Assembly: GCA_004431415.1 (NCBI GenBank)
Contig: QPMI01000139.1
Span: 13,143 to 77,142 of the forward strand
Direction: 5' to 3'
DNA from: Cyanophora paradoxa CCMP329
Taxonomy: Eukaryota > Plantae > Glaucophyta
DNA length: 64,000 nt
In this document: in pieces, positions 12,801-64,000 of the stretch
How the letters are laid out: each line of letters starts with the position of its first letter
Position numbering within the stretch: position 1 is the stretch's first letter
Notes under the pieces: generated by a model
Databases searched by the model: none
What the model was told of the DNA's origin: nothing
Seen by the model: the letters and a program-made list of their open reading frames with translations, nothing else
Program-made: the position numbers and the translations under genes

Positions 12801-13279
12801 CATCTCTCTCTCTCTTGCTTTGTGCCCTAGTGAACCTCGCCTTGCGCTCTTCGCCTGTCCAAACCTCGCCTCGCGCTCTTCACAAATGGGGGCAAAGGGA
12901 CAAAGGGGGTCGTCTAGGCTGGCGTAGCTCCTCGGGGTGTATTAACAGCATGCTAATGTCTGATTCTTCGGGTGGCCAGTGGCCACACCCGCATCAGTTT
13001 TCAAATCGCGGCAGTAACGTTCAGCTCCGTTTTTAACCGCCGCACCGATCGAGGTCGGAGTACTACGGTACAGCATTCGGCCTGGCGCCGTGCTGTCAAG
13101 CACGCAACATTAAGCTTGTTTGTATTCAGCTGCACATGTTGCTAGCATGAGGTAGCCGTGGGATCGTCCAGCGCGTGGAGCCAGCGCCAGGCAAGCGCGT
13201 GGTCGCCAGCGCCAGCGCGTGCGCTTGCGCCCCTTTGTGAGGGAGAACTGCCGCAGTGCCGCAGTGCGATGAAGGACAA

Positions 13280-43701: not shown

Positions 43702-44608
43702 TTAGAAGCCCTGGAAGGCCTTCTTCGCCTGGCCGCCAGTCGAGCCCGCCTTCGGGATGACCTTCAGGACATTGAAGCGGACGGTCTTCGACAGGGGCCG
43801 GCACTGGCCGACGATCACGGTGTCACCGGGGCTGCGAAAGACATAAAGGTTACTTCCTTTCGACGGTCATCCAGTAGGGCAAGGGCGGGTCGCGGGCTAG
43901 ACGGAGCAGGTAGGAGTGCGCGGCAGGCGAAACGCAGAGCATGCGGGCGCACTTGACGATGAACGCCGGAGAGCAGTGCGCGGGGAAGTTCTTGTGGCGC
44001 TTCTCATAACGGTTGTACTTCGGGATGAAGTGCATGTAGTCGCGGCGCACGACCAGGGTGCGCTTCATCTTGGTCGACTGCACGACGCCCTGGAGGATAC
44101 GGCCGCGGATGCTGACATTGCCAGTGAACGGGCACTTCTTGTCGATGTAAGAGCCTGCGCACACAAGCCCGCAGGTCAGCGGAAGCTTCTTAGGTCGGCG
44201 ATCGATGGCTCTGTTGCGCTGGTAAGACGGCATCGCTGCTCGGGCGAGCGGAGGGGCGAGCCGCATAGAAGAGCTTCGACCGCAAACTAGACTGGAGCTG
44301 CACCCGATGGCGCCTTCTGTTCGCCGGCGGCTACCTCGCCCGCTGCTGGCTCGAGCGCGAGCGGCCGCCGGCTCCCGCAGACGCGTCCGCTCCGCGATCG
44401 CGCCGTCCGGTCTAGCTTCTAAGCTACTGCGAAGCGCACCCTCGATCGCCTCGCGCGGAGTCTTGAAGCCGAGGCCGATGTTGCGGTAGTAGCGCGGGAC
44501 CTTGCCGCTCGGGCCGCCCTTCTTGGCCAGAAGGCGCTTGGAGCCAATGAAGATGGCGTCCTGCTTCTGGAAGGCCCTCTCGACCTGCTGGACTTCGGCC
44601 GTCGACAT
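43702..44608 (-). CDS. RPS11: 40S ribosomal protein S11 (uS17)
   Basis: [65 protein letters not shown]; two introns. Confidence 0.97.
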
Positions 44609-44792
44609 TTTCCCCTGCGCAGCCGCAAGCGGCGCCAAAAGGTGCACAATGAGCACAAAATCTCGAGTCCCAAAGCGGGAAGCGCCTCTGGTGGCTATAT
44701 CGGCTGGCGTTCTTTGGCGGACGGACCTGTGTTACTGCCGGGTCCCGACCGCGTACGGGTACCGCTGTTCAAAAAAACTCGAACTTCGCATC

Positions 44793-45652
44793 GAACTACA
44801 TCAAGCTCGGGCGCGCGCTTCCCCAGCGCAGGGAGGAGGCACTAGCTGCGCGCCTTCCCCGGCCTCCTTGCTCGCTCGCCCCCGCCCCGCAGCAACTCGT
44901 TCGACGAGCGTGTTGTTTTCCATGAGCTTTGCATGAGGGCGGCAAGAGGTGCGCTAATTAGCTTTAGTTAGCGATGCTGTGTGCTAAACTGGCTGTCTCA
45001 ACGTTCCCGCAGCTGGCGCCGGCCTTGCCTGACCGCTCGACCGATGATCAACAGCTCGCCGGTACTCGCCTACCTTCCAAGCGTGAGCTCTAGCTCTCGT
45101 GAGCATGAACTTAGCATTGAACTACATCAAGCTCGGGCGCGCGCTTCCCCACCACAGGGAGGAGGCACTAGCTGCGCGCCTTCGAATTCCCCCGGGGCAT
45201 CGCGTCTTGCCTGCTCCCGGCCTCCCTGCTCGCTCGCCCCCGCCCGGCAGCAACTCGTCCGACGAGCGTGTTGTTCTCCATGAGCTTTGCATGAAAGCGG
45301 CAAGAGGTGCGCTAATTAGCTTTAGTTAGCGATGCTGTGTGCTAAACTGGCTGTCTCAACGTTCCCGCAGCTGGCGCCGGCCTTGCCTGACCGCTCGACC
45401 GATGACTAACAGCTCGCCGGTACTCGCCTACCTTCCAAGCGTGAGCTCTAGCTCTCGTGAGCATGAACTTAGCATTGAATTACATCAAGCTCGGGCGCGC
45501 ACTTCCCCACCACAGGGAGGAGGCACTAGCTGCGCGCCTTCGAATTCCCCCGGGGCATCGCGTCTTGCCTGCTCCCGGCCTCCCTGCTCGCTCGCCCCCG
45601 CCCGGCAGCAACTCGTCCGACGAGCTTATAGCTTATTGTTCTCCATGAGCTT
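44793..45652. repeat. Tandem repeat, 358-bp unit, about 2.5 copies
   Basis: ACTACATCAAGCTCGGGCGCGC starts at ~44796, ~45121 and (as ATTAC...) ~45479; near-identical ORFs at 44981 and 45339. Confidence 0.92.
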
Positions 45653-46173
45653 TAGGAGTGGGCGCACCATTGGGCGCTCGCGCACGGCGCGGGCAATGTC
45701 CTGCAGATCTCTCGGAGCTAGCGCTGGAGGCGAACAAGCGGGAACATGAGCTCGAGGAGCGGGAGGCGAAGACACGCAAGCTGGCCCAGTGGCGCCGTAC
45801 GTGAGCGGGAGGTGAAGACACGCAAGCTGGCGCCGTACGCGTCGCCTGCCTTCCTAGCGTTAGCTCTAGGGCCTAGCGCTAGCTCCAGGGCCGATATCAT
45901 TATATAATTAATTTAAGTTTACTGTACATATGCATGTGCATGTAACTGTTTTACGCAGCCCATGTGTACGCAGCTCTCCGATGGTCACCGCGCGCGGCCG
46001 TCGTCTTGCAGTTGTCTTGTCGACTTCGATATCATGAAGCTTATATAGGAGGGCCATCAATGGGCCAAACGCGAAAAGGCAACTCCGAGAGCTCGAGACT
46101 CGGAAGTGACGCTTGGATTGCGGAGGTTCTTATAACCGCCGCAACAGCTGTGGGGGTACCCCCTCCGAGGCTG

Positions 46174-46283
46174 GCGATCGCGGCGATCGCGACCCGATCG
46201 CGACCCTGGTGATCGCGACTTTCTCCCGATCGCGACCCTTTTCGATCGCGATTTCGAGATCGGGGGCATTTCTGCGATCGCGA
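46174..46283. repeat. Cluster of seven GATCGCG motifs
   Basis: GATCGCG at 46176, 46185, 46196, 46211, 46228, 46244 and 46276. Confidence 0.85.
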
Positions 46284-46410
46284 GAAAGGAAAAATCGGAA
46301 AAGGCCGAAAAGTGCGTTTTTCACGCGTGAAATCGACCGAAAACGAGGGTTCGAATCCCGGGCCCGGATTTGGACTTGGGCAAAATCTCGGACTGAAATG
46401 GGAGAAAAAT

Positions 46411-46469
46411 GGGACCTGGGACTTGGGACTTGGGACTTGGGACTTGGGACTTGGGACTTGGGAAGAGTT
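46411..46469 (+). repeat. (GGGACTT)n array 1 followed by GGGAAGAGTT
   Basis: One variant plus six perfect heptamers. Confidence 0.95.
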
Positions 46470-46518
46470 GGAATCAGAGTCTGGACTCAAAACGGGGAAA
46501 TTTTCGGAGGGGAGAAAA

Positions 46519-46989
46519 ATGTCAGGCAATCTCTATTACGATTTCCCCTTTGAGTTGCATATGGCATTCGAGAGGCTGCGCGAGTTCTGGCGTTGGCACC
46601 TCACAGGACATGACATTCCCGACATAACACCAGAGCCCAACACACAGGGCGTGCTTGAAGTCATCCGTCAATATCCGCGTCGATTCAATGAATGGATCGA
46701 GTTCCACGCAACGAACCGTTTCCAGAGTCTCCCCGAGGCCATACGCGAAAATTTCGTGAGGCTGGTGGGACCAGGCTACGACAACCCTAACAATCATAGA
46801 CCACGCCCAGCTGGCGTGACGCGCGAAGCTCGAGAAGACCGTAGACTTTTCCGCAGGGAATTGAGAGAGGATAGACGGAGGCTTTCAATGGGGCTCCCGC
46901 AGATTGTGAGGGGGTACAGCCCGGATTACGAGACTTACCAAGAATTGTACGGCTTCGAAAATCCCTTTGAGAGGGTACTACCAGGGTGA
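46519..46989 (+). CDS. Viral hypothetical protein
   Basis: Intact ORF MSGNLYYDFPF..., preceded by AAATTTTCG-N12-ATG. Confidence 0.7.
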   Translation: MSGNLYYDFPFELHMAFERLREFWRWHLTGHDIPDITPEPNTQGVLEVIRQYPRRFNEWIEFHATNRFQSLPEAIRENFVRLVGPGYDNPNNHRPRPAGVTREAREDRRLFRRELREDRRRLSMGLPQIVRGYSPDYETYQELYGFENPFERVLPG

Positions 46990-47327
46990 GGGGCCAGGGG
47001 GGGCCCCTGAGGGTGTACCCCCCATCCGAGACTCGACCTTCGGCGGACGCACTCGGGCAATTTCCGTCAGGCCGGCTCCTTTTTCTGTCTTCGGTCCAAC
47101 GCTAAATTTGGCTTTTTCAGGCCAGTTGGCAACGTTTTCCGTTGCGAACTAGCCCAGGAAAAAATTCGCCCACAAAACCGCGGTCCGCCGCCATTTTGCC
47201 TCACTCTTGAAACGGGTTCGCCGCCTTCTCTCAGCCCAAGGAAACCCTGCCTCTCCGAATTTTCACAAGTCCGCCCTCACAGTCACCTCACGTTTTGCCT
47301 TTGCTGATTTCTTTTCCCTTTGCGCAG

Positions 47328-48394
47328 ATGTCGATTCCCGCTGAGCTTGCCGAGGACTTCGCCTTTGTCCAAGCAACGTGGGCTAACTCCGGTGGCACTC
47401 AAGGGGCTACCCCTGAGATGGAGCAGCGCGCCGACGCTCTGGGGTACATCTACAATTATGCCATCTTACGCGCCACTGGCCCCGAAGTGCAACTTCTCCC
47501 CAAGTCCGCCTTCACGTCCAAGGCCAAGAAATCCAAGTCCAAGCAACCCAAGCCCGAGCCCCCGTCGACGTGCCCCCGTCCCCGGCTGGGTCAAGACCGC
47601 CAACGGCTGGGGCGACCCCAAGCTTTTCGCCGAGTCTGCTGCCGAGACGCTCGCCTGGGCCTACCCCCTCAAGTCTTCACGAATTACCCCCTCCGTCATC
47701 GTCGTCATCTGCCCCTCAGCCCGTCGCCGAGCCCGCCCCCGAGCCCGCCGATGACGCCAAGTCCGAGGCCTCTGACGTCGAGTCTGACATCAACGACTTC
47801 ATCGACTTTGACGTGCCGATTCCATACGACTCTGAGTCGTCTTCTGACTCTGAAGGCGACAACGAAAACCCGACTCGCAAGCGCCGCATTATCAAGACCA
47901 AGTCAATCGTCAAGAAGAAGTTCATGGAGACTACGTCATTCACCGACAACTCCGAGCGCGTCAAGGACCCCGCCAAGGCACACGAGAAGGACTTGAAGCT
48001 CGGCGCCGGCATTGCCCGTTCTCGCGTGACGTCACACTACAGCGAGCGCCTGACTCAGCACGTCAAGACCATTGAGAAGCGCGTCCTCTGCAACGAGCTC
48101 CGCAAGGAGTTGGAGCGCAAGCGGCGCCACGAGCGCCTTGTCCAGTACCAGATCAACAAGGCGCGGATCGCCGAGCGCAAGCAGAAGGAGGCGGCCGAGC
48201 TCAAGGCGCGCATCGAGGCTCAGCAGCAGCGCGAGGCAGAGGCGGCAGCGGCCTTGGCGGCGCAGCGCGAGCGCGAGCGGCAGGACTTGGTGCAGGCAGC
48301 GCAGTCCCTTCCCCGCATTCCCCTTAAGTCGGCGCCCGAGGGCCTCATTGAGTTGGTTTCCGATGACGATGACTCTGACTTTGAGATGCTGTAA
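47328..48394 (+). CDS. Hypothetical acidic/basic coiled-coil protein (frameshifted) with a putative 5'-UTR intron
   Basis: MSIPAELAEDF... continues via two frame breaks into ...RKRRIIK...LIELVSDDDDSDFEML. A pyrimidine tract and CAG directly precede the ATG. Confidence 0.65.
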
Positions 48395-48468
48395 ATAGTA
48401 TTGCGTCATTCCATTGTACATACTTGTAAAAATTGGCCGACTATTCAGTTACGACTTGGCGCGATCCT

Positions 48469-48526
48469 GGGACTTGGGACTTGGACTTGGGACTTGGGAC
48501 TTGGGACTTGGGACTTGGGAAGAGTT
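48469..48526 (+). repeat. (GGGACTT)n array 2 followed by GGGAAGAGTT
   Basis: Seven units, one of them GGACTT. Confidence 0.95.
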
Positions 48527-48807
48527 AGACTCAGGGTCTGGGCCCAGAATCTCTCTGGATCTGAGAGTTTGCCGCGCCAAGTCCCTAACCACCGGGCAGA
48601 CATGTAGAGGGGTACGGAAATCTGCATATGACGTTTCTGGTGACATTCCAGGTGAGATTTCAAGCGAGGTAGAGTCTGAACTGGTGTACGACTTGTAGCA
48701 TGATACTGGACATGAAAGCTCACGAGAGTATGCAACCGAAAACGGATGTGAAGAGGGGTAGGAGTTTTCGTGTGAGATGTCGAGAGAAGGAGGGTACGAG
48801 ATGGGAT

Positions 48808-48880
48808 ACGAGTAAAAAGACTACGAGTAAAAAAGACTACGAGTAAAAAAGAGTATGAGGAGTGGTAGGAGTAAAAAAGT
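48808..48880 (+). repeat. Short direct repeats ACGAGTAAAAAAGACT (about 3 copies plus a degenerate one)
   Basis: acgagtaaaaagact-acgagtaaaaaagact-acgagtaaaaaagagt...gagtaaaaaagt. Confidence 0.85.
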
Positions 48881-48954
48881 CGGTAGAAAAACTCACCTGA
48901 CTTGTCTGACAAATTTCTGATCCTGGAGAAAGTCTGGGCCGGGACCTGGGTTTC

Positions 48955-49031
48955 AACTCTTCCCAAGTCCCAAGTCCCAAGTCCAAGTCCCAAGTCCCAA
49001 GTCCCAAGTCCCAAGTCCAAGTCCAAGTCCC
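48955..49031 (-). repeat. (GGGACTT)n array 3, inverted
   Basis: AACTCTTCCC followed by about 10 AAGTCC(C) units. Confidence 0.95.
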
Positions 49032-49055
49032 AGGTTTTTCTGAACCTAGGGCAAA

Positions 49056-49372
49056 ATGGCCCTGCTCCGGTGCACCGACTCGCAAGACGTCGCCTACAAC
49101 GTCCTGGTCAACTCGGACGTACCCCGAGTGCCTTGGAGTTTCCCTGGAGAGTGGACAGGGACAGGGTGAGCAAGACGTTTGGAGGGCGCAAGCACTACCT
49201 CTCCCAGCTGATCCTCGGGAAGTCGCCACGTGGACGCTACGTGGAACACATCAACGGCAACCCGCTGGACTACAGGAGGGAGAACCTGCGCTGGGCATCA
49301 ATGTCGGAGATTCGCAAGAAGAGGAGGGGTACGCCAATTTACAGGAGAAGAGCGAGGAGATTCGGGAGATGA
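49056..49372 (+). CDS. HNH-type endonuclease-like protein (one frameshift, degenerate motif)
   Basis: YLSQLILG...YVEHINGNPLDYRRENLRWASMSE matches the phage HNH pattern VDHINGxxLDNRxENLRW. Confidence 0.75.
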
Positions 49373-49408
49373 TGGAGGCGACACAGGTGCTAATGCAGCT
49401 TAGCCAGT

Positions 49409-50221
49409 CTAGACGCTAGTGGTGTGAATCTTGGTGTCGTACTCGCGACCGACCGTTTCCCAGGCCACGTAAACTTCGGCTCCGGCGCCTGGCGCTGTCG
49501 AGTTGGTAGTCGCAGTCGTGTAGTCCGCCTCTGCCTCAATTAGTTCGGCCATGAGGGTAGAGCCCACGACCATTCCAGAGGTAGGCATTCCGGCGATGTT
49601 GTTGTACAATTTGAAAGTGAATTTCGTGAAGAGGAGCCGGGGCCAGACCTGGGTACGGGGATTCGAGGCGCCGTATGAATAATCGGTACCCGAGGCGCCG
49701 CCCGTGGTGGCATTCGTCATCATCTCCTTTGCGGTCATCTTCCAGAGGTTGTACATCTCAAAGGGAACGGCCTGCGTGGTCTTGTGTGTGGCATCGATGA
49801 GGGCGCCATCTAAATGCGTTTTGATGTTCGGATTCGCACCATTCCCGAATTTGCGAGTGAGGGCGGTGTTAGCGGTGAACTTGAGTTCGAGCACGCGAAT
49901 GGCGGGCCGATCAGGCACAGAGGGCTCTATCTTTTTCAGGAGGCCCGAGAGCCAGAGCGCCTCCGCCTCATCCGCGCTCACGCCCGAGTCGATGTCAAAG
50001 TACACGTACACGGAGCAGGAGGCGGGATTCTCGAAATCGTTGGAGGTGACGCGCAACATGACGGGATTCTGGACCCTCACGGTGAGCGGGGTGGCGTAGT
50101 TTCCGTCCCACTCCACCTTGTCCGTCCCTGCGTTGGCCACGTTCCCAGCGTTGCCGTAGAAATCGGGGACGATCGAGCCGGCAGACACGGTCTTCACGAT
50201 GGTGGCCGAGGTGGTCGGCAT
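49409..50221 (-). CDS. Putative virion structural protein, paralogue 1 (270 aa)
   Basis: Intact beta-rich Thr/Asn/Gly ORF; shares blocks with the adjacent ORF. Confidence 0.6.
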   Translation of the reverse strand: MPTTSATIVKTVSAGSIVPDFYGNAGNVANAGTDKVEWDGNYATPLTVRVQNPVMLRVTSNDFENPASCSVYVYFDIDSGVSADEAEALWLSGLLKKIEPSVPDRPAIRVLELKFTANTALTRKFGNGANPNIKTHLDGALIDATHKTTQAVPFEMYNLWKMTAKEMMTNATTGGASGTDYSYGASNPRTQVWPRLLFTKFTFKLYNNIAGMPTSGMVVGSTLMAELIEAEADYTTATTNSTAPGAGAEVYVAWETVGREYDTKIHTTSV

Positions 50222-50244
50222 TTTGCGACCTCAAATGAGAAAGA

Positions 50245-50924
50245 TTATCCGTGAAAGAGGGTGATGTCGCCACCGATGTTCATGACGCGGGCCCCAGGCA
50301 CAGAGTCAGCGTCGGTGCCGTACGCGTAGGAAATCGAGCACTCACGCAGCTCCGCGCAGAGGCTGGCGCCCGTGCTGAAGTGGGGCTGGTCGGCGGCGTA
50401 GGAGAGGGGGAAGACCTGGAACCTGAAAAAGGTGAAGGGGAAGCGGGGTAGAGTCGAGCCGCGTGGGTTGCCGCCCGTGTAGAGGGCCCCAGGGTCGCGG
50501 GACTTGGATTGAATTTCGTGAAGAGCACGTCGCCCTTGAGCGTACCCCTCATCTGGTAAGTTCCCGTACCCGGAAGATTCGAAGAACTGGGGTACCGGTT
50601 CACGGTGGGGCCGTACCCCGTCTCCCTGAACTTGACCTCGAGACAGCGCAAGACGTTGGCAGTGGCCGTGGCAGGTGCCACCTTTTTCACGAGTCCTGAT
50701 TCGTGCAGCAGCTCGATAACCTCTGCGCTGAGGCTCAGAGGGTCGAAGAAGAGCTGGTAGGAATAAATCTTGGGCGTGGCGTAGGCGTTCTGAACGACCT
50801 GAATCACGACGGGATTCTGCAGAAAGACGTCGACGTAACTGCCGGAGGGTATGCGTGCGAAATCCTTGGTGTTGTTGCCAACGTCAAGTGAGCCGCTGAG
50901 GGTCTGGTACCAGTTGGAAGTCAT
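50245..50924 (-). CDS. Putative virion structural protein, paralogue 2 (one frameshift)
   Basis: QNPV, SGLVKK, LEVKF, FTFFRF and GASLCAELRE align with paralogue 1. Confidence 0.6.
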
Positions 50925-50962
50925 TTACCCGGGGCAGATATTTTTTCGGATCGTAGAGGAAA

Positions 50963-53098
50963 ATGCCCCGCTTCGTATTCGTGAAAAAGCAGGTGGTGCA
51001 GGCTCCGCAGTATGGCGTGGAGCCGATCTCGCTGACTGTGGGCAGGCCCCAGGTGCGATCGGGCTCCGTGCTCAACAACGGGAACAGTACGTACGGCTTT
51101 CAGCTGAACTGGGTCGCGGTCACCAACGCCGTCAAGTACAAGGTGTACAGGGCGACCAGCATCAACGGCCCCTGGGATCTCGTGGCCACGGTGAATGCGC
51201 CAACCGTCACCTACACGGACTCTCCCTTTAGTTTGGGGGCCCAGCGACTCTACCGCGTGGCGGCGGTTCGCGAACAGGGCAGCAGCAGCACGGGCTCTGA
51301 TGGCAAAGCCCCGCCCACAACCTACGCACAGTCGCTTCTCTACACCCACGAGGGTGCCATGAGCAATTACATTCTCTTCCAAGGCATAGGCGGCTTCAGC
51401 CCGCAGATCGAAGCCTACACCACGCTCACGACCGCCACGGCCCAGACCTACGGCGATTTTATTGCCGGGGCGGCCCCGCGTCTTCGGGCTTCCCGAAACC
51501 CGCCATAGTCGTCACAATCAACTGGGTGGCCATGGAGGGCGCGGACTCGATTCGAATTTACAGGAACGGTACGCCAATCGGATTTGCGAGCAGTGCCCTG
51601 TCTACCTCGTACATTGACGATAGCACTGCTCTTACGTGGGGCACGGAATACTCTTACCAGGTGGCCGGCATCGTGGGCGGTGTCGAATACGACAAGTCCG
51701 ATCCGCTCCTGGTCTGGACTATGCCAAACGCCCCACGAACGTGACGGCATCAGCACCCAACGACCAGCAGCAGCCTGTCAGCCTCAGCTGGACTGCGTCC
51801 ACGGGAGCGACGGGATACAAGATTTACAGAGACGGGGCCTACCTCACAGACTCCGCGACCAACTCCTACAGCGACACGACCACCGTCTGGGGTACAGGGT
51901 ACGAGTACCAGATCTCCGCGACGAACACGGGAGGGGAGGGGCCGAAGAGTATTGCGGCGTACGTCACCACGGACCCGGGGGCGCCCACTGGGCTCACTGC
52001 AACCCCGCGGCGGGGGCAGCACAGCCTGTTGTGCTCGAGTGGTCGGTGCCGGTGACGGGCGTCACCGTCTCCTACAACATCTACAGGGGTGGCGTGTTCC
52101 TTGCCAGCGACACGAGCAGCCCCTTTTCGGACACAACGACCGTTTACGGAACCACTTACACTTACACCATCAAGGGCGTCAACCAGATCGGCGAGGAAGG
52201 CCCTCAGTCCTCGTCTGCCAGTGCAACAACTGCAAACGCTCCTGTTTTGGGTACATTCTCCTACACCGGGGCCGACCAGACTTTCGTAGTACCAACGGGG
52301 ACTGTGGCTGTGCGTGTCATCGTATGGGCGGCCGGGGTGGAGGCGGAGAACGCGCAGGTACGGGGGTCCGTGGAGGCGCGGGTGCTTGCGTAGTTGGTAC
52401 ATTGGCTGTGTCCTCGGGGAGACGCTCATCCTTGTTGTTGGATGCGGCGGCCCAAAGGGTGTATCGGGGACTGCCACTGCTACCGTCTACGGAGGTGGTG
52501 GAAGGGGCTGGAGCCATAGCGTCGATCCGGAGTACAAAAACGGCGCCGGTGGTGGTCGTTCTGCAATTCAGCGCGTTGCAGGGACCGACTTGGTTGTTGC
52601 AGGGGCCGGAGGTGGGGGTACATGTGATTCGAATGGCGGCGGGGGAGTAGGCGGGGGTTGACCGGTGGTGCGGCTGGGTTGGTTGGAGTAACCGGAGAGA
52701 TACCGGCTCAAGGAGGCACCCAAACCGCTGGCGGAGCCGGTGTTGTGGCCTCAGGGGCCAGGCCCAGCAACCCGGGAACTTTGCGCCAAGGTGGAGAGAC
52801 TGGGCCTGATTCAAGCGGCTACAGGTTCGGTGGTGGTGGTGGTGGTGGTTACTTCGGTGGAGGCTCTGGGTCCAGCAGGAGCGGAGTGTCAGAGAACCCA
52901 ATAGCAAGAATGTTTGGAGGTGGCGGTGGCTCGAGCTACATAGGAAACTTGACGGATGCTACGGTGTATCCTGGGTCCGGCCAGGTGGCAGGAAATAGCG
53001 GAGACGCTCACTACGCAGCAGGCATTGGTAGGGGCGGCAACGGTGGCTCGTCTTTCAGCGACGGTGGCAACGGTCGAATTGTGATACTCGCGGTGTAG
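50963..53098 (+). CDS. Fibronectin type III repeat plus glycine-rich domain fibre/adhesin (frameshifted)
   Basis: Four LxW...YxIYR...YxD...YxYxV modules, then [42 protein letters not shown] and GGNGRIVI. Confidence 0.85.
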
Positions 53099-53104
53099 TT
53101 ATTC

Positions 53105-54176
53105 CTAGTTGTTCCAGATCAGCTCGCCAGTGCCGCTACCTGGTCTTTGAGAGTTTGAACTTCTTGTGAAAGTTCCTGAATTGCCTTCAACGACAGGGAA
53201 ATGAGCCTGTCGTAGTTTACCCGAGAAATCCATCCGCGTTCTCGAAAACGAGACTCGGGAAGACGCCTTGGACTTCCTGTGCGATGAGACCGTAATCCGT
53301 TTTCGAACCCCCGAGGATGTGTTCTTCCAGGTGAACGACACGGGATTCAGCTGCAGCAGAAGAGGGAGAATGCCCGACATGCTCGCGACATTTTCTTTCA
53401 GGCGGCTATCGCTCGACGAGTTTGTCAGGTATCCTTGAGCATCCGAATAAACGGCTCGGTTTCCATCGCCCGTGAGCGTCGAGACGATGAGCCGACCCGT
53501 GATGCCAACGCCGACGGTTCCGCACAGCAGTCGTTCGGTGCCGTTGTTTCTCAAGGATAGACCAGAGCTGACGCTTCCGCTATCAACGATTGAAGTGTTT
53601 GCTATGCTTAGGCCATTAGTAGGGCCTTCGATTGCCGAGGTAAATAGAGTACCTGTAACACCAACGCCAAGAGTCCCACAGAGGAGTCTATCGTTTTCGT
53701 TGTACTTTATAGCTACGCCTGAACCACCGCCATTTATGTACGGTGACGTTCCGGTAATTTGCAGCTTATCGTCCAATGTAACGATGCCCGCCAAGTTTGA
53801 AGCCCCGCTCACCCTAAGCCCCCCACCACGTTTGCTCCGCCTCCTTGCACATACAGAGCCGCATTCCCTCCCCGTTCACAGTCCCATTAAAGGTCACCTG
53901 ATTCGTGGTGTACCCGCTCCCGTCCCAGGCCCCGTTCGTGACGGTGAGCCTCTGCGTCCTCACGCGCCCCGGCACGGCCGACCCGCCCTCCCGCGTGCGC
54001 ATCTTGTCGCAGCGCAGCTCGCCGACGCGGACGAGGTCGGCCTCGGAAAAGGGGACGGCCGTGGCGTTGTAGGGGGCCTCGGTGGCCTGGTTTCCGAGGG
54101 TGGTCTCCTTAATCGTGTGATCGCCCTTGTGATTCACGCTGGCAGCATAGGTAAATAGAGGGACAGCGACCGACAT
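53105..54176 (-). CDS. Fibre protein with C-terminal peptidase S74 intramolecular chaperone (frameshifted)
   Basis: SSDSRLKENV, LQLNPVSFTWK, GLIAQEVQ..FPSLV, VNYDRLISLSLKAIQEL across frames; internal repeat ERLLCGTxGVGxTG. Confidence 0.85.
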
Positions 54177-54200
54177 TTTTGGATTGCATCAGAAAATCGA

Positions 54201-57200
54201 TTACATAAGCAGCTTGCCGATCGCGGTCCAATGAATAAAAAGCTGGACAATTTGGGTGGGCGTGACCGTCATTCTGGGTTGGAATCTCACTTTAACTGTA
54301 AAGCCAGTGTGACTCACCGCCGTGACGTTGGCCCCGTAGAAATCGACATCCGTGCTGCCGCCGGGATTGATGTCGAACGAGGGGGTTACGTTAATAACCG
54401 GCGTTGGGTTTGCTGGGGTCCCCAGTCCGCCTCCAGTGTCGTACGCCTGTCCGAATGTAATGTTGAACGTCACCGTGTATGTTGAATTGATGTTAAACTC
54501 CGTGTACGCAGCGTAGGAGTGGAAGGACGTGCCGTGCGTTATGTACGCATCCATGTTCACGTTTCTGTGCCCGTGGCTGGTGAGCGAGTACTCTGTGTGA
54601 CTGTGCGTAGAGGGTGGGAAGGAAGTGGGTCGGTCGATGACATTATCCCAGTACACATTGTGACTGTGTGTAGAGGGGGGGAAGGTAAGTGGCTTGCCCG
54701 TTACGTTGTCCCAATCCACGGAGATGTTCGTCAAGTCCGGGGCCGTCCAGTCGCTGATCTGAGAGATGGTGTGCTGGTGGTCTGCGTGGGGATACGTACT
54801 CGGCTTCCCCGTGATGCTATCCAACGCCCACGTTGTTGGTATCACGGGTATCGTCGGCCTCCCGCTGAGATCTGCATACGCCCCGTGTGTGCCACCGTCG
54901 CCAGCTGCGGCACGGCAACGCCCACGGTGCTCACGGCCTGGCTCGCCCCCGGCGCCATGTGCCACTCGTAGTTCTGCGATGCAAACACGGGCTGGCCTGG
55001 CTCGGGCGCCCAGTACTCGATGCCTTTGGCGATCTTCTTGGTGTATGGTGCTGCAGGCCTGTCAACCAATTTATCGACGTAGGCCTTGGGTACCAGCCAG
55101 TTTGCCTTGGGGCTCTGCGAATTGATCCCGTTGTCTATGAAGGCCCGTAATTCCTGAAGGCCTCGGCCTCCCACCAATCCTGCATGCGGAAGGTCCCGGG
55201 AATCTCGAGGCGCGAGTTGGCGTCCGCCAGGCGGGCCACCTGCGCCCCTCCGTTCGACGAGACGCCCGAGTGACGGATGGCCGAGCCGAATTCGCGCCTT
55301 AGGGCTTCGATGTGATTGATCCTGTTGAGGCCCTCCTGGTAGACGGCAATTAAGACGCGCTTCCGCCCCTTGGTCTCCTCCTTTATCATCTGCTTCAGGT
55401 CGCGCATAAGTCGACTCAGGGCGAGCGAAGTCGACCCGAAGCCTCCTGCATTTTAACGGTGAGCTGGGAGAGGAAGAGCACGGTCGCGCGATCGATTTCG
55501 AGCAGGGTCTTCTGGTCCTTGGGGTACGGTAATCGTTGATGCTGTTGTCGAGCGCGCGAATGAAGGCCTGCAGCTCCTTCGGCTCCTTGATTTCGTTTAA
55601 CCGCAGCTCCTGGGCCAAGAGCGAGGCCATTTCGCGCGCCTCCGAGGGGTCGTACACACCCAAAAATCCGGAGCCCAGCTCGCCCTCCAGCCGATTAATT
55701 CGGTTGCGCAGCTGGCTCGCCTCGTCGCCCCACGTCTCGACGCCCCAGTCGTAGATCTGTTGCGAGAGCTCCGCGATGAACTGGATGGTGTCGGCCGCCC
55801 AGTCAACGGGGTACTTGAAAAAGTTCTTCACGATCTCTTCCGCGCTGCGCCCGTTGATGATGTCCACGATCACCTGCGCGATGGCGCCCGCGAGGATGGA
55901 CAGGCCAAGTCCGCCCACCGTGCCGATCCTCATTTTCGTGAGGGCGCTCAGGGCGGACGACATGCCCGTCTGCAGGCCAAGGAGCCGACCGTCATGATCA
56001 TCTGATCGCGGAACGTATCGAAGAACTCGGCCTCCCCTATCTTGCCCTGCGAGAGCGCCTGGTAGGCCGAGAGCAGGCCGCCCGCCGTCGCCAGCCCAAG
56101 GCCGCCGCCGCGCGCCGCCCGCCGCATGGCCCGCGAGCCCGTACCCCCAGCCGGCGCCCACCAAGTCGATGCCCGCCCCTGAAATAAATCGGCTGCCCCG
56201 AAAGACATGCCGTCGTTGTTCGCCGTACCCATCGCGGAGAAGAGGGTCTCTGCGCTGAAGGCCTCCTTGGCCACCCCGGGCCGCCTGGCCCTCGGGCGCC
56301 CAGGAAGGCGTCGCGCTGCTCTTTGGTGGTGAATCGCTCGAGGTCGAAATCGGCAAGGGCGTCGGCGGTGGCGCGGTTCCAGTCGCCGTAGGGCATGAGG
56401 GCGTTGCGCAGAATAACGTCCGAGTCGCCCATCACGCGCCTGTCGAGCGTCTGAAATACGCCCTCGGAGGGCAGGCGAGCCGTGCCCGGCGCATTTCCTC
56501 TACGGAAACGTCGTCCCTTTCCGCGAGGGTGATGTCGTCCGGGCTGGCCGAGCCCACGCCCGCGCCTCGTCGGCGTAGGCCCTTCCCTCCTTTTTAACAG
56601 TTGATTGGCCTCCCGTTTCAATGCTTGGTACTCTGTCTCTACCTTGGTCTTTCTTGCCTCTTCCTCTGCCGCCTTGCGCTCTGCGATCTTCCGCCTCTGC
56701 TCTTCTATCTCGGCGTTGCGTCTCGCCGCGTTCTCCTTGGCTTGCTGCTTCCGCTCTTCGATCACCCTGTTTGCGTACTCCTTGTCCGCTTGGGCCTTTC
56801 TGTAGCGCTCCTCGATCTGACTCTTGGCCTCGTCTCCTCTCTTCCTTAGATCGCCCATGAATGCCGTCGTATCTATGTGAATCTTGTATTTGGCGGGTGG
56901 TGCTCACGTTTGAAGGCCTCCAGATCGCGCACCATGGCATCGTACTGCGCGAGCCCCTCCGCTGGAATGATGGCTCTTCGCATTTCCCAAAATTTGCTCA
57001 GCTTGCCCACGTAATCGACCATGGAGAGGTACGCGCTCTGTGCGCCCGCGCTCACCGTTTTCGGATTGGCTCGCAGCTCTGCCAAAAACTCCCCTTTTGT
57101 ATCCGGTACAGTGACCATTCGAGGGCTCCCCGCCACAGGCTCGCTTCCGTCCGCAGTTCTCTGTGCATCTCCTCCACGTCGCCGTATGCTATCCAGATGG

Positions 57201-59257
57201 CATCGCTGATGGGCCTCTGAACAGCCTGACGCTCAAAGTTTTTCCACTTCTCATCGGCCATCTTTCTCCTCAGTTCTTCGGCGTCTTTCTGACCCTTCCC
57301 GTCAGCTGATCCATAACGTAGCTAAAGTCGCGCATGTTCTCTTCCATGGCGCGGAGCCTGTCCCCCGATGCATTTCCTTCTTTCAGTCTTTTGAGCTCCG
57401 AGCGGTAAAAATCCATCTGCGCCCCCCTGAACGTCTCCAGTCGTCGCTTACGCTCCGCTACCTTCGGCTCCTCCAGCCGTGCAAATTCCTCGTCTGATGC
57501 AGTTTGCATTGCCTTCAGTCGTTCCTCTTCTGTCTTGGCAGCTGCCTCCTCGTCCGCCCTGCGCCGCTGCTCTAACGCGTCGAAGAGGGCCTCTGATCCT
57601 CGAGCGTGAGGCCAATGAGCTCTTCACCTGGTCGCTCCTACCCAGCCGCGCGAAGGGCAGCCTCTCGGCGGCCGCCTTGGATCGGGCCTTGGCGTCGTCT
57701 GCGTCTCCATTGTGCCCTTGGCACAGCCGTCCCTATCTCTGCAGCTCGGCCGTCAGCGTTTTCACTTGCTGCTCTAGGTTGAATCGTATGGTGGATGCGA
57801 GCCCCTCTGCCTTCTGCCTCTCCTGTTCTCGCAGTTCGAGCTGCCTTAAATCCTCCTTTGCTTTTCTGGCTTGCTCCTCCGCTGCCTTTCGCTCATCGTC
57901 CAGCATCTTTGTGCCCTCTTCGACCTCGTTTGCTATGTTGACCTTGTTTGCTATTTCCATGTCCAGTTTCTCCAGCTCGGTCCTTGCCTGCTCCTTTGCC
58001 TCCCTTATCGCGTTTTCCACGATCCTATCGGCCTCTCTCTTCGGATCTCGGCTTTCTCCTCGGCTCCAGGGATTTCTCAATTCTATCGCTCGCCTCTTTC
58101 AAATCGTCCGCTATCTTTTCTCGGCCGCTGTCCTCATTTCGTTAAATTGCCGCTCCTTGTCTTCAGCTCCTCTGCCAGTATTCTCACCTGCTCGTCTGAG
58201 TAAACGATCGTTTTGTTATCTTTCTGCAGCTCTGCAATGTCCTTTCGTACGCCTTCCGATCCCTGTAGTACTTTGCACCGCCTGCAATCAGGGCCGCGCC
58301 GAAGATTCCCGTTGTTGTACCAAGGATCGGCACGAGCGTACCCCTCCGCCGCTCTCTCCGCCCGAGCCGCCGCACCCGAGCGCTGCTACCCCCGCCCCTC
58401 CCACGGCGTGCACTGGAGCCCCTCCGCCCCCCGTGCCTGTACCCCCACCCCGGTGCCTGTACCCCCACCCCGGTGCCTGTACCCCCACCTCCGTGCTTCC
58501 GCGCCCGTACCCCCCCGGATCGCGCCCGGCACCTTGGCCCGCCGATGATGTCGTCGTACAGGTGGCGGTGCGCCCAGTCCGTGATGTCGGCCTTCACATG
58601 CGGGTGCTTGACGAGGCGTACCTCTCGTCGTGGAAGTGGTCCTTCAGCGCCCAGTTCTGCGTCTTCGCCCAGTCTGAGCGATCGGGGAGCACGTCGGGTG
58701 CCGTTGGGATGCGGCCCCGCCCGTCGTCTCCGGCGTCTCGCCCGTCCTGTCGGCGCTCAGGGCGCGGATGTTCACCTTGAAGTGGTCGAACCACGCGAAA
58801 AACTCCTCCCTGTCGCGCTGTACTGCTCGGGCTCCATGCTCGGCAGCGCCTGGCGGCTCCAGTAGATGTGGCGCAGGGGGCCCGCGATGCGCTCGAGTGC
58901 GTTGTACCGGGCTCACGTCCCCCTCTGCGCCTTTAGAGTCAGTTTCACGAGGTTCAGGGTGGCGTCTTTCGCTGTAACGGAGTTTGCGATTTTCACGTCG
59001 GCCGCCCTCTTAATAATGTTCCAGTCACGCCGTCTCGGTCGTGACGCCCAGAGCCCTTGATAATTGCGGTGAGGTCACCGTAATCGTCCAAGGTACCGAC
59101 GGACGTCAGGAAATCGCTGTAGGTCGCGCCTTGCGCAGCCTTATCTCGTCCGCGTAAATTCCCTCACGCTCAGGCTCCCGTCTATCGCGAAGGCGCCGTT
59201 CAGCACCTCGTCCGGATTCGGGATGGCCATGCGCCAGGGGTCGTCGAGCATCGACAT
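54201..59257 (-). CDS. Very large frameshifted ORF (or ORF series): coiled-coil body, hydrophobic helices, C-terminal phage tail-fibre repeats and lectin-like tip
   Basis: ATG 59257 with the upstream motif; E/K/R-rich coils at 56.5-58.2 kb; GGLGLSILAGAIAQVIVDII; YADLSGRPTIP, WDNVTGKPLTFPPSTHSH; ends FIHWTAIGKLLM. Confidence 0.6.
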
Positions 59258-59279
59258 TTATCCGCGAGAGAGAAAAATT

Positions 59280-59752
59280 AACTAATGCTCCGCGTCCCAC
59301 GTCCACTTCAGCTTGCCGCTCACCTCGCCCGTTGTCCAACGGCCACGGGCACCTGCCAGAAAACGTCGGCGTAGGGGTAATCGGGCCTGATAGTGATCTG
59401 CTCGTCACGCAGCCAGCGGTAGGCCTCGAGGCGTCGCGTATTTTCGGCTCCCAGTATTCCCCGCCCGTGCCGTTCGGCAGCGAGTACCCCTCCCTTGCTA
59501 CCCGTACCCTGTAAACGTGCTCGCCCGTTAGCGTGTCTACCCCCCTGTACTCGAATTCTACGATTAAGGCCAAGTCCTGCCATGCGCTCTCGCCGAGACG
59601 GATGTGACTGAGCTGTGCAGCAGCCCGTATTTAATTGGACCAGAGGCGGTTACAAGATCGACTCTGTAAGTGAGGGGCGAGGGTAGCCAGGCACGCCCGT
59701 AAAGGTGCGCGTCTTGACGCCGAGCCTTTCGCGGGAATATGATCAGGCGCAT
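59280..59752 (-). CDS. Viral hypothetical protein (frameshifted)
   Basis: MRLIIFPRK...LIVEFEYRGVD...PDYPYADVFWQ; upstream ATTTTCG-N13-ATG. Confidence 0.55.
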
Positions 59753-59772
59753 TTAAGGGGGCCTGCGAAAAT

Positions 59773-60216
59773 CTATTTCGCAAAGGCCCAGAGGCCGAAG
59801 TTCTTGACGATGAAGGTTGTTCTTCTTGGTGGCGCCCGTGATGTCGTGAAGCGCACGCGCAGCTCCTGGAACTTGTCGTACGCGACGTAGTTCGGGCGCA
59901 CGGCCATGGGCACCTCGAACCAGTAGAGATGGTGTTCTCGGGCCGTCGTGGCCCCACGTCGGGATCACGACCTTGTTGATGCACGTGTTGACGTTCGAGA
60001 TGGTCGTGACGTTCAAGTCGGGCACGTCATCAGCAGAACGTTGACGGTTTTCGCGGCGGTGGGGTCCGGAATCGCGGTCGTGTCCAGCTCCAGGTAGACG
60101 CCCTTGATCTGCAGCGTGTCGATGTCGGCGGGGATCTGGTTCAGCCTGAGGCGCCAGAAGCCCTCGGAATCCTGCGTCTCTCCGTTCGACTGGACGTAGA
60201 GGTTGACGCAGGACAT
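59773..60216 (-). CDS. Putative minor capsid (penton-like single jelly-roll) protein (frameshifted)
   Basis: About 145 aa of alternating beta strands: VNLYVQS, FWRLRLNQ, LQIKGVYL, VNVLL..PDL, WFEVPMAV, QELRVRLHDITG, NFGLWAF. Confidence 0.5.
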
Positions 60217-60239
60217 TATTTAGGAAGGGGCCTGAGAAA

Positions 60240-60425
60240 TTATGCCTTCCTCAGGCCGTTGAGGAGGTAGGGCCCACGAAGTAGTAGCCCGCGAACTGCG
60301 CGGCGAGGATCCGCACGAGGTAGTAGCGCGCGGGCGACATGTAGGCGACCGCGCGAGGGTCAGCAGGCTGCCCAGGTAGCGGGAATCGCTGGTGATATCA
60401 TCGAGGCTCGGAGCATGGACGACAT
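60240..60425 (-). CDS. Small membrane protein (frameshifted)
   Basis: TLAVAYMSPARYYLVRILAAQFAGYYFVGPYLL; upstream motif present. Confidence 0.45.
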
Positions 60426-61069
60426 TGTTAAGGGCCCATTCAGAAATTTACTTGGGCATGAAGAAATTCCTGACGCGCTCTCCTCCTCGTGCAGCGCCCA
60501 CTGCAGCCGGTCGATGACGGCGGCCATCACGGCGGGCTCGCGGCGGGGTTCTTCGCGTACGCCGGGCGTCCTCTGCCATCTGGGGTGTACTGCTCGACGC
60601 GCTTGGCGTAGCTCGCGATGGCGCGGCGGGTGCACCGATCCAGGTCAGCCGCCATTTCGCCGGTGCCTTCGGCTGCTGCTGCTTCTTTCGCGCGTAAGTC
60701 CTAAGAAGCCAAGGGTAGGCGCGGTGCTGCTGCTGGAGTTGCTGGGCGCTGAGCCTCTGCGCTGGGGCTGGTGTCGCGGAGTCTCCATTCCCATGTTCTC
60801 TAGAAAAAACGGGTACGGTTTGCGTCATCTGAATGTCGACGTGGTGCGCCCTATGTTCTGCGTGCTCTCGCGCCTCTGCTGCTCGGTGGGGTTCGGGCTC
60901 GGGCTGTCGCGGCGGACGACCTAAGGGCCGCCGCTTCAGGGCGCCAGCACTGTGTTGGGCCGACGCGCTCCGTGCCGCAGCAGCTCCGAGACCAGGAAGA
61001 GCGCGCCGCAGCGACGTGATGATGTCCGAGTGGGTGCATTCCCCTGGAACATTTTCGCGGCCGTCAGAT

Positions 61070-62690
61070 TTATTATCGCTACCCCTCCCTTCCGCGCCCT
61101 TGCCTTGCGCGCCTCGGCCCTGGCCTCAGGTCGCCGATTTCCGCGGCTGCGGCGCGAAGCGGGGATCGTCCGCTGGCCGGCGTCCGCCTGGAAAATCGTG
61201 AAGAGGTACCGTCCGTGTTGTTGTCGGTGTTGTTCGTGTTTCGCGCGTGCGAGCCACTCTTTCAGTAAATGCGCCTCTGCTTGTCGGGCAGCGTCTTTGA
61301 GAGGTACTCCTGCAGCTTGCTCGCGTAATTTTCCTCTGGGATCAGCGACGCAAGGACGGTGGGCGGATCTTTCCCATGCCTATCTTCTCTCCGTCAGCAT
61401 GCGCTCGAGCTCTGCGATTTCACCATCGTATCGATGCTCGGTTGAGGCCCTGCCTCTGCCTCTTCTGGTCTACGAGGCGCTGCCCCGCCGCGTGAATTCG
61501 CGGACAGAATTTGGTGCAGCCGCTCGTACACCGTCGTGGTGCTCGGCTCTTCTCCTTCAGCAGCACCACCAGTCGTAATTCGCCCACAGCACTGCAAATT
61601 CGATATGTGATCGATCGTCACCAGCACGTGGCGTGCAGCGCGCCGTCCGTCGGCCCACCTCCACGCCCCTTGCACGCGAATTCCGATGATTGCGTTGGCG
61701 TACGTGTCGTCTTGTACTTGCCGTTCTTTCCTTCATATTGAAGCGTATGAACTTGTAGAATTCTGCATCCGAGAGCACCTCTGCGAGGCTGTCGCGCAGC
61801 GCCGCCGCTCGAATTCTCGCGCCTCTCCAGGCGTTGTGGGTGTTGAAGAGCACCCAGTAGCGCGACTGGCGGCTGTCGTATGTCGTACGCGTGCTTCGTC
61901 GGATTCTTTTGTTGAGATGAGACCGACGCCCCGTCTCGCTGATTTCCGTGATCACCTTCTCGAGCGCCTCCAGCCGTTTCCTGCGCCGCCTGCAGTCCGT
62001 TTTCGCCTTCTCTATGTTCTGCTTTACCTCTTGCGCGTCGCGAAGGTTGCCATTAAATCTTCCATGCTCGCGCACGATTTTCGCCTTCTGATTTTCGACT
62101 GCGCAGAGTTGGGCTCGATGACGGACGATCCGAAGTCAGCGGCCGTATCCTTTGCCTTTTTCGTGGTCTTTGCTTCGGCCCGCGAGCACGCTCTCGACAT
62201 GTGGTCGCGCGTCTGCTTGGAGACGTGGCCGTGTCGCCCTCTTTCGCCTCTGCAGGCCAAGATCACGAGCAGGCCTTGTTGCCGAGCAGCGTGACGCACT
62301 TCTGGCAAGCCACGAGTTTCTGGGCGACACCGTGGGCACCTGCGCGGCTTCTTGTCCTTGATGAGGGGTACGGCTCCTGGCCCTTTTTCTTCCCTTGCCG
62401 TTTTGCTTGGCCGCCACGCGTTTGCCTTCTCTATGACGCGACGTACTCTTCGTACACGCATCCTTCTCGCCTGCGCTGCTCCCTGCGGCGATTTCTCTGG
62501 CGTGTTGGCCCCTTGGCGCTCGGTCACGGGCGTGGCTTCGTACATGAGGCGAAGGCAGCGGTAGCAGAATTGGCGGCGATTTCTGCGCGCTCTGGTACGT
62601 GCGCGGTATGGCGCGCAGATCGCTCCTCGGGGAGTTTATCGTACTCGATTTCGCTGTGATGCCTCAGAGGGTCGCGGGCTCGTGGTATGA
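61070..62690 (-). CDS. Basic coiled-coil viral protein(s), heavily frameshifted
   Basis: Overlapping minus-strand fragments rich in K/R/E; limits uncertain. Confidence 0.4.
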
Positions 62691-62691
62691 T

Positions 62692-63034
62692 TTAATCGAG
62701 CAGCGATGGAGCATCTGAACTTCTTTGTGGCGAGAGCTTGATGTAACGATATGCTCTCTGCTGCTGGAATATGCCGTCCTCGCCCTGAACCAGCACGTAT
62801 CGCTTCGGAATCTCAACGACGGGCGTCTCGAGCTCGTCCACGCCGGTATCGGGCGCGTTTCCCTTTGCCTTTCCCTTTCCCTTCCCCTTGCCCTTGCCCT
62901 TCGGCTTAGGCTCCGGCTCCTCTTCTCTTCCTCCTCTTCTTCCTCCGACTCGGAGGACGGGGACGTGGGCTCCTCTTCCTCTGACTCGCTCGAGCTCTCT
63001 GGCTTCTTCTTGCGGCTCGGCGCTTCGGAGGCAT
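62692..63034 (-). CDS. Small acidic/Lys-Gly-repeat protein (MPPKRR...KGKGKGK)
   Basis: ATG 63034 with the upstream motif; NLS-like start; one or two frame breaks. Confidence 0.55.
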
Positions 63035-63055
63035 TTATTGGACACGAGAAAAAAT

Positions 63056-63886
63056 TTACACGAGCTTTACAGCGCCCGTCTCGAGGGCCTCTACCGTCTT
63101 CGTAATGTACAGCTGCAGCAGATCCTTAAGGTTGCTCTGCGGCAGCAATTTTTACGTCTACGTGCATCTGCCTGGCGGTTTCTCGCTTCCTGTAGCCCGT
63201 CTCCTTGCCCGTCCACTGCATGCCGAGGGCGTCCTTTCTCCGTATCGGCCGCACCGCCGTCTTCTGGTACTCCTCCCGAACCAGTCGTCCTTGTAGAATT
63301 CGGCAGGCCGCCCTGCCCTCCGTTTGCATGAACTTGATGAGGAAATCCGACGCCTTCTTGCCGTCGAATTGCACGCGAGTAGTGCACCAGCGTGAGCAGG
63401 ATGTGCGCGTGGAGCCGCCCGACCGCGGCCCGTACTCGATGCCGATGTTCCGTTGCCCTTCTCCACGTGCGTGTCGTACTGGTCGGACTTGAAATCGAAG
63501 CCCTTGGGTTCGCCTTGTCGGGGTACACCCCATCTTTATGCACCGCGCCAGCTGCCTGTCGTCGTAGAAGAGGGCCTCCAGCCCCCTGTGAAACGCGTCC
63601 TGCACCTTGGAGCCCTCTCCCCTGCTCCGCGGCTTGTAGTTGGTCTGGATGGTGATCATGAATTCGACTCGCGCTGCGGCCGATCCTCCGTTCAGTTTCC
63701 TCACGGGCGCCGCGTCCAGCACCTTCTGGAACCACGTCTTGTCGGGCGCCAGCACCTTGTCGTTGATGTTGCCCACCACGATGTGCGTCTCTACCCGGGA
63801 GCGGCCGGAGGCGTCCATGCGGAGGTGAGGGTTCGGTGCCCGGGCTTGCCTGTTTGCTGCCACGCCCTCGCGATGAGGTTGAGCAT
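63056..63886 (-). CDS. HUH superfamily rolling-circle replication endonuclease (frameshifted)
   Basis: Motif I FMITIQTN; motif II IEYGPRSG-RLHAHILL (HAH at 63403-63411); motif III LLQLYITK; restored with single-base corrections. Confidence 0.8.
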
Positions 63887-63955
63887 GTCAGACCAAGGCC
63901 TAGAAAATTTTCCGAGGCTGGGGTGAGCTTCCACGTGGGGCCCGGGGTACGTCCG

Positions 63956-64000
63956 CACCTCACCTGAGCATCACCTGAGCCTCACATGAATCACCTGAGC
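63956..64000 (+). repeat. TCACCTGAGC short tandem repeats, running off the window end
   Basis: tcacctgagc-a-tcacctgagc-c-tcacatgaa-tcacctgagc. Confidence 0.75.

Follow-up and report, generated by a model that had tools for sequence, protein, structure and literature searches.

A multi-copy virus-like element with twin HUH endonuclease genes in the glaucophyte Cyanophora paradoxa, probably related to mriyaviruses

The 64,000-nt stretch of Cyanophora paradoxa CCMP329 analysed here (the window; positions 13,143 to 77,142 of contig QPMI01000139.1) ends in the left-hand 18 kb of an insertion that is present in many copies and encodes two adjacent endonucleases of the HUH type, a short one (HUH) and a long one (HUH_long). 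The element is inserted at many AT-rich sites as near-identical copies with conserved gene order, and the HUH-pair family in C. paradoxa is a real, recent, high-copy endogenous virus-like family. It is probably of a mriyavirus-related kind, and the insertion in the window is best read as a likely latent provirus of that lineage, probably sister to Gamadviridae. An earlier note on this stretch had proposed a new endogenous DNA virus with an HUH endonuclease; the high copy number and the second HUH domain are additions to it. The features that carry these conclusions are as follows.

45,671-46,070: host-element junction, covered by one single-copy 400-nt contig, with an AT-rich patch on the host side
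46,042-46,051 (about 46,045): left end of the element, marked by loose contig ends with several different AT-rich flanks
61,070-63,034, minus strand: HUH_long, about 676 amino acids (aa), with an acidic N-terminus, two CxxC pairs and a C-terminal HUH domain; frameshifted in the window, intact elsewhere
63,056-63,886, minus strand: HUH endonuclease of mriyavirus type, about 280 aa; frameshifted in the window, intact in other copies

One element end at many AT-rich sites

The host-element join was checked by aligning short-read contigs to 44,101-46,400. A contig crossing the junction with no difference was found in all three DNA runs (X1, X4 and X8; one from 2012 and two from 2024), its depths of 59.6, 6.28 and 83.9 being close to those of host DNA (53.6, 6.81 and 70.9), whereas single contigs just inside the element reached 2,449 versus 59.6 in X1, 155 versus 6.3 in X4 and 3,341 versus 83.9 in X8, a roughly 25-40-fold rise from which copy number can be gauged only approximately. 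Contigs matching the element from 46,040-46,051 onward carried differing AT-rich sequence before that point (at least nine contigs in X1). Because a single-copy junction contig is found together with such varied flanks, the join is real, the element ends at about 46,045 and the same end has been inserted at many sites. The earlier note was thus right about the join but not about its position, 45,900, since 45,671-46,040 is single-copy host DNA. On this host flank a patch at 45,895-45,955 is 75% AT, and no 60-nt host window of at least 70% AT was found in 1-45,800, sampled every 10 nt.

The proposed position beside RPS11 was borne out as well, and the block is compositionally distinct. GC content is 0.595 in the element block and 0.733 in the host part, CCGCCC/GGGCGG runs number 1.6 and 10.5 per kb, respectively, and the shift falls at about 46 kb, the first 44 kb being 73% GC with GC-rich runs typical of C. 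paradoxa short introns. The adjoining host gene was identified by Pfam as RPS11/uS17, and its 285-nt intron is skipped in run X17, namely spliced, as X17 behaves RNA-like there.

Proteins related to those of the window are listed in EukProt under C. paradoxa accessions. HUH, HUH_long and a 270-aa element protein, paralogue A, were located on at least 26, 22 and 37 named contigs of the C. paradoxa assembly, respectively, and on at least 56 contigs together, these counts being lower bounds that cover only some protein clusters. Both HUH genes occur on 15 contigs, with consecutive gene numbers in 15 of 15, and an HUH gene and paralogue A occur together on 14, mostly 8-11 gene numbers apart. Three paralogue A variants were seen in the family (270, 260 and 252 aa, the last 61% identical; P0191, P0032 and P0037), as were two HUH_long variants (66%; P0215 and P0217) alongside near-identical short HUHs, and these variants suggest module exchange between co-resident viruses. 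Environmental relatives share 41-71% identity with HUH, 59-60% with paralogue A and 28% with HUH_long, those examined lying on 1-8 kb contigs; judged from these sequences (P0009, P0036, P0040, P0043, P0044 and P0180), the lineage exists outside this culture.

Two adjacent HUH proteins

With a profile built from three closely related HUH proteins, 211 proteins were retrieved at E ≤0.001. An alignment of 100 members shows no variation at E153, H162, H164 and H171 and 90% conservation at Y264 and K267, and motifs II (HUH) and III (YxxK), by which Mriyaviricetes HUHs are recognized, are intact in the other copies. The predicted model (pLDDT 76) has SIRV1 ORF119 (2X3G) as its top PDB match (E 6e-3), the same protein that has been reported as a match of mriyavirus HUHs (PMC11253617). 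A structure comparison by VIA places IS200/IS605 Y1 transposases in all 13 top positions (Z 6.4-7.7, rmsd 3.3 over 120 residues), values of Z <8 being not specific there, and the profile had no sequence match in PDB. In BFVD the top match is A0A2H4YB87_2 (E 2.4e-12), unnamed there, which we take to be a Pleurochrysis virus HUH_long. The claim of an HUH endonuclease thus holds. No HUH match was found in 50,697 phage records, and in prokaryote genomes only one 18-aa match was obtained, in a Dokdonella metagenome-assembled genome (L100:2156-2209); it extends no further than the HUH motif pattern and is probably due to chance or to another HUH.

The same profile also matched three collinear fragments at 62.1-61.27 kb, in the neighbouring gene. 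Intact copies of this HUH_long are between 628 and 676 aa long and carry a complete HUH domain, with its HUH and YxxK motifs, at the C-terminus (hhalign 98.5%, E 1.5e-15). A longer protein with a C-terminal HUH thus stands beside the short one on 15 of 15 contigs with both, and such an HUH plus HUH_long pair is conserved in Gamadviridae (PMC11253617).

Position of the HUH pair relative to gamadviruses

HUH-based retrieval yielded 99 loci related to the window HUH, labelled gamadvirus-type by gene context rather than by reference accessions. One examined locus carries A32, VLTF3, DUF5767, HUH and a 1,857-aa open reading frame (ORF), and the nearest library relatives are 15-48 kb contigs with HUH, an HUH_long of 1.5-1.9k aa, A32 and VLTF3. 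In a tree of 60 rows, subsampled from 188 domains, the host HUH_long together with an environmental 613-aa relative is sister to the gamadvirus-type HUH_long (98/82), the host short HUH falls in a clade with environmental proteins, and all four HUH groups are set apart from other HUHs (93/85). Neither protein nests in the gamadvirus HUH clades, both lying outside crowns supported at 100/98 and 100/99. Because the HUH pair is shared but outside the crowns, the replication module is gamadvirus-like and the element is not filed as a gamadvirus.

Several points weigh against a mriyavirus-related origin. The tree holds no labelled Yaraviridae or Zora HUH, an independent HUH duplication was not rejected (p-AU 0.26; in a tree of 28 rows the support was 76), and the stems of both long clades are long. 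When 2,467 ORFs and 59 profiles from the 99 loci were compared with the window, only HUH matched; capsid, ATPase, VLTF2/3, RuvC, PDDEXK, SF2/SF3 helicase and Mriya_1/48/50/51 were not detected in its 18 kb of element, where frames are broken, and searches of IMG/VR and JGI turned up no close relative on a long contig. Genomes of Mriyaviricetes measure 35-45 kb, and the element at least 18 kb. In addition, mriyaviruses are reported to be without integrases, and phage-like fibres and many insertions are traits of polinton-like viruses (PLVs), according to the available text of bioRxiv 2026.06.19.733378 and PMC12220804. The PEV_8-35 proteins, including the PEV_22 minor capsid protein, were also sought with the 59 profiles and gave no match in the window, which holds half of the element. 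Since HUH also occurs in Zoravirus and VC218, and fibres are common in PLVs, HUH and fibres alone are no proof of a mriyavirus. Of the earlier reading, the endogenous virus with a mriyavirus-type HUH is supported and gains from the second HUH.

Frameshifts and age of the insertion

The block is a gene block as described earlier, but its 'densely packed' reading frames are broken by many 1-nt deletions. Compared with intact copies, the window HUH shows 268 matches, no mismatch, no stop and 12 frameshifts; the window HUH_long shows 581 matches, 37 mismatches, no stop and about 51 frameshifts, nearly all deletions; and paralogue A has no frameshift in the window. Of the words of 49-59 kb, a fraction of only 0.76-0.79 is present in the DNA runs. 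The CpG ratio of the element is 1.07, i.e. undepleted, and C. paradoxa repeats are reported to be CpG-methylated (PMC12344493). We infer that the frameshifts are unpolished long-read errors in a repeat and that the insertion is recent. Provirus decay as their cause was rejected by the comparison with intact copies and by the undepleted CpG. No RNA dataset is on record as containing the element stretch; six runs guessed as RNA contain 0.29-0.40 of the words of 49,001-59,000, which is a lead only.

Start motif and repeat arrays

A motif upstream of starts, WHTTTCK, first spotted by eye on such starts, precedes six of seven independently anchored starts, compared with 8 of the 357 remaining ATGs (Fisher p 7e-9), 12-32 nt ahead of the start, and AA stands before the ATG at 9 of 14 starts versus 19 of those 357. 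The motif, as the earlier note had held, is a real shared start signal, and it may be a promoter. It is no general trait of gamadvirus-type contigs (29 of 191 ORFs).

The 'origin-like repeats' were likewise recovered, as three heptamer arrays, one of them inverted, and near the element end lies a further group of repeats:

46,160-46,300: subterminal palindromic repeats, five copies of a 9-nt palindrome-like word, hairpin-forming
46,410-46,463, plus strand: heptamer tandem array I
48,468-49,032: heptamer arrays II and III, forming inverted arms of 88 nt at 80% on either side of a spacer that contains a 16-nt triple repeat

All five occurrences of the 9-nt word in the element lie at 46,160-46,300, against one in 45.6 kb of host, and the region has a DNA fold of -36 to -39 kcal/mol, computed without a shuffle control. 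These palindromes are a candidate nick site or origin, and arrays II/III with their spacer appear origin-like.

Other genes of the element

The Pfam scan covered 93 of the 184 frames of at least 60 aa and PHROGs covered 59 frames, frameshifts lowering the sensitivity. The remaining features of the element are listed below.

46,519-46,989, plus strand: ORF of 156 aa carrying the upstream motif; no family match in Pfam, PHROGs or further profile searches
47,328-48,394, plus strand: acidic and coiled-coil protein in shifted frames, from ORFs and sequence; its start lacks the upstream motif
49,056-49,400, plus strand: HNH endonuclease, frameshifted (Pfam HNH_3, E 2.6e-7)
49,409-50,221, minus strand: paralogue A, 270 aa, intact; 12 host-assembly clusters and two environmental relatives at 59-60%
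50,280-50,924, minus strand: paralogue B, frameshifted; about 30% identity to A (E 3e-16)
50,963-53,098, plus strand: FN3 repeats and a glycine-rich domain, frameshifted (fn3 E 1.3e-5; ALK_LTK_GRD E 7e-4; PHROG tail matches)
53,105-54,176, minus strand: fibre with a C-terminal S74 chaperone, frameshifted (Peptidase_S74 over two frames, E 7e-6 and 3e-4)
54,201-59,257, minus strand: long coiled-coil ORF(s) with phage-tail repeats and an H-lectin-like end (PHROG minor tail E 2e-10; weak H_lectin E 0.067)
59,280-60,216, minus strand: two small beta-rich ORFs, including the 'penton-like' one starting at 60,216; no profile match
60,220-61,052, minus strand: three small ORFs of no assigned function

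The fibre genes announced by the earlier note were recovered by matches to fn3, to the ALK/LTK glycine-rich domain, to Peptidase_S74 and to phage tail repeats, and its HNH gene and pair of paralogues also hold. The FN3/glycine-rich protein is, from its domains, likely a fibre or adhesin, and 54,201-59,257 probably forms one gene, seen as one or a few ORFs. Of the supposed fibre/capsid module, the capsid part was not observed within the window. The penton assignment was not confirmed: only to the eye does this ORF look like a single jelly roll, and it has no match in Pfam, PHROGs, NCBIfam or the gamadvirus-type minor-capsid profile. This last profile gave no match to paralogues A and B either; paralogue A is by eye a candidate minor capsid protein, its single-sequence fold prediction reached pLDDT 29, and a five-row profile of it found nothing credible in PDB. 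PolB, integrase, protease, capsid and ATPase were not found in the scanned frames, so that the reported absence of PolB, integrase and protease holds for the 93 frames scanned with Pfam only. Immediately 5′ of the ATG of the second ORF (47,290-47,327) lies a splice-acceptor-like tract, unlike at other starts.

Host neighbourhood

RPS11 is separated from the element by a 358-nt tandem repeat (44,858-45,625; 97%) of low copy in reads, and a short high-copy host repeat with a summed depth of 850-1,200 and loose ends lies at 45,641-45,709, about 340 nt from the element end. On the minus strand at 42,436-43,140, a host gene has an Amidase_2 peptidoglycan amidase domain (E 2.7e-12), which fits a plastid with a cell wall. 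Plus-strand frames at 29,600-32,150 have motifs reminiscent of reverse transcriptase, of RNase H and of a tyrosine recombinase, a combination known from DIRS-type retroelements.

Earlier reports, proposed mechanism and rival readings

Viruses have been described from this host before. The PMC10120064 supplement gives 366 C. paradoxa capsid genes, which form two groups apart from the named PLV groups, in its Table S2 capsid proteins of the host have HHpred matches to capsids of nucleocytoplasmic large DNA viruses, and the PMC12220804 supplement files 156 glaucophyte elements as PLVs. Table S6 of the latter records, for the 156 elements, A32 in 139, the rve integrase in 85 (71 being without it), tyrosine recombinase in none, protein-primed PolB in 49, protease in none, D5_N in 40, HNH_3 in 40 and S74 in 37, figures that are column totals rather than per-element data, with columns matched by position. 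Methylated giant-virus-like regions in C. paradoxa have also been reported (PMC12344493), as has a scaffold of a gamadvirus within the assembly of a haptophyte (bioRxiv 2022.07.28.501842), so the word 'new' in the earlier note was an overstatement. The element family probably accounts for some of the 366 capsid hits and some of the 156 elements already catalogued; the cluster of about 40 elements with HNH_3, S74 and D5_N fits it, and would supply a D5-type helicase and possibly no rve. An HUH-bearing or mriyavirus-related glaucophyte family was not met in the literature searched, most subscription journals being outside its scope, and the available part of the main text of bioRxiv 2026.06.19.733378 does not mention Cyanophora.

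Mriyaviruses have been proposed to stand nearer to the giant-virus ancestor than any other living group, and rolling-circle replication has been predicted for them (PMC11253617; bioRxiv 2026.06.19.733378). By analogy with the family, the HUH pair of a mriyavirus-related provirus would nick an origin, for which the subterminal palindromes or the heptamer arrays are candidates, and the nick would prime rolling-circle or strand-displacement copying in the nucleus, carried out by a host polymerase together with a helicase encoded in the unseen part. An A32 ATPase would pack the genomes into a double-jelly-roll capsid, both presumably encoded beyond the window, the S74, FN3 and lectin fibres would bind the cell surface, and host CpG methylation may keep the copies mostly silent. 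As to integration, a conventional integrase in the unseen part or host repair is favoured as the likely route. Integration by the HUH pair itself is possible but doubtful; hints of it are the structural matches to Y1 transposases, the AT-rich flanks in a host of 73% GC and, among the totals for the 156 elements, the absence of tyrosine recombinase, the 71 without rve and the about 40 with HNH, S74 and D5 (PMC12220804). A mriyavirus-related double-stranded DNA virus lacking both rve and tyrosine recombinase, whose twin HUHs replicate it and insert it into AT-rich patches, with about 40 intact copies, is accordingly put forward only as a rather unlikely variant.

Unlikely, too, is a virus of PLV size, either Zoravirus/VC218-like or one of the ungrouped Cyanophora PLVs, that has had an HUH pair swapped in and carries an rve integrase beyond the window, even though the fibres are PLV-like, no second gamadvirus gene was found in 18 kb, 85 of the 156 glaucophyte elements have rve (PMC12220804), HUH is reported for roughly half of VC102 and for 28% of VC218, rve for 57-62%, and module swaps are frequent (bioRxiv 2026.06.19.733378). 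In the literature examined, as far as its available text goes, the tandem of HUH and HUH_long is described only for Gamadviridae, and the tree places both HUH proteins beside gamadvirus-type groups. AT-rich targets, furthermore, are not known to be typical of rve. A capsid-less HUH transposon (Y1/Helitron-like) carrying captured virus genes would suit the 13 Y1 transposase matches, the AT-rich targets and the lack of a demonstrated capsid gene in the window, but is improbable given that three fibre-type genes with the shared start motif keep their order across copies, that paralogue A, HUH and HUH_long have environmental relatives and that Z <8 is not specific. Giant endogenous viral elements have been reported in C. 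paradoxa (PMC12344493), but a sharp end reused at many sites, near-identical copies and no giant-virus core gene seen make a fragment of one very improbable here. Least credible of all is a chimeric assembly with a contaminant phage or prophage, which phage-like fibre domains, many indels and several copies seemingly near contig breaks might suggest, since the exact host-element contig in three of three DNA runs refutes it for this junction, all 20 of the 20 datasets containing the sequence are of the same organism, and HUH has no match in phages and one 18-aa match only in prokaryote genomes. A known tailed-phage family, the other outcome that the earlier note had offered as a refutation, is likewise disfavoured: HUH has no phage match, PHROG matches in the 59 frames are only fibre-type and HNH, with no HK97 capsid, portal or terminase, and the element is joined to algal DNA.

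Since the family combines a gamadvirus-type HUH pair with dozens of recent insertions whose genes are intact, and its algal host is in culture, how it replicates and how it integrates become testable, and public DNA, RNA and methylation data exist for C. paradoxa. The likely host range of the mriyavirus-related group thereby extends to glaucophytes, and some elements filed as PLVs or giant-virus remnants may belong with that group.

Comparison with known systems

SIRV1 Rep ORF119 (2X3G) and the IS200/IS605 TnpA share with the element HUH the minimal single-tyrosine HUH fold, whereas the element HUH is about twice as long, is paired with a second HUH and belongs to a eukaryotic element, its activity being predicted only. 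Zoravirus (VC102), VC218 and VC134, compared by description only, are mriyavirus-related, small, in part equipped with HUH and able to integrate (bioRxiv 2026.06.19.733378); in the available text a tandem HUH is not described for them, and their Mriya48, Zora-type capsid and rve or tyrosine recombinase were not seen in the window. The PLVs and endogenous viral elements of C. paradoxa (PMC10120064, PMC12220804) come from the same host, and a gene with phage-tail repeats and an H-lectin is mentioned; they are filed as PLVs, and HUH is not mentioned in the available part of either main text.

The Gamadviridae (Pleurochrysis endemic viruses and Phaglo-G; PMC11253617) differ from the element in an HUH_long of 1.5-1.9k aa, as against 660-680 aa with CxxC pairs; the element in turn has HUHs outside the crowns, fibres of phage-like type, insertions by the dozen and a glaucophyte host, and none of the genes next to the pair in gamadviruses was detected in the window. 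Like the element, they have adjacent HUH and HUH_long genes with intact motifs, the same HUH subfamily, a SIRV1 ORF119 match and a GC-rich genome; no DNA polymerase was seen in the 93 frames of the element scanned with Pfam, and the Phaglo-G genome scaffold has short tandem repeats at its flanks, a further likeness.

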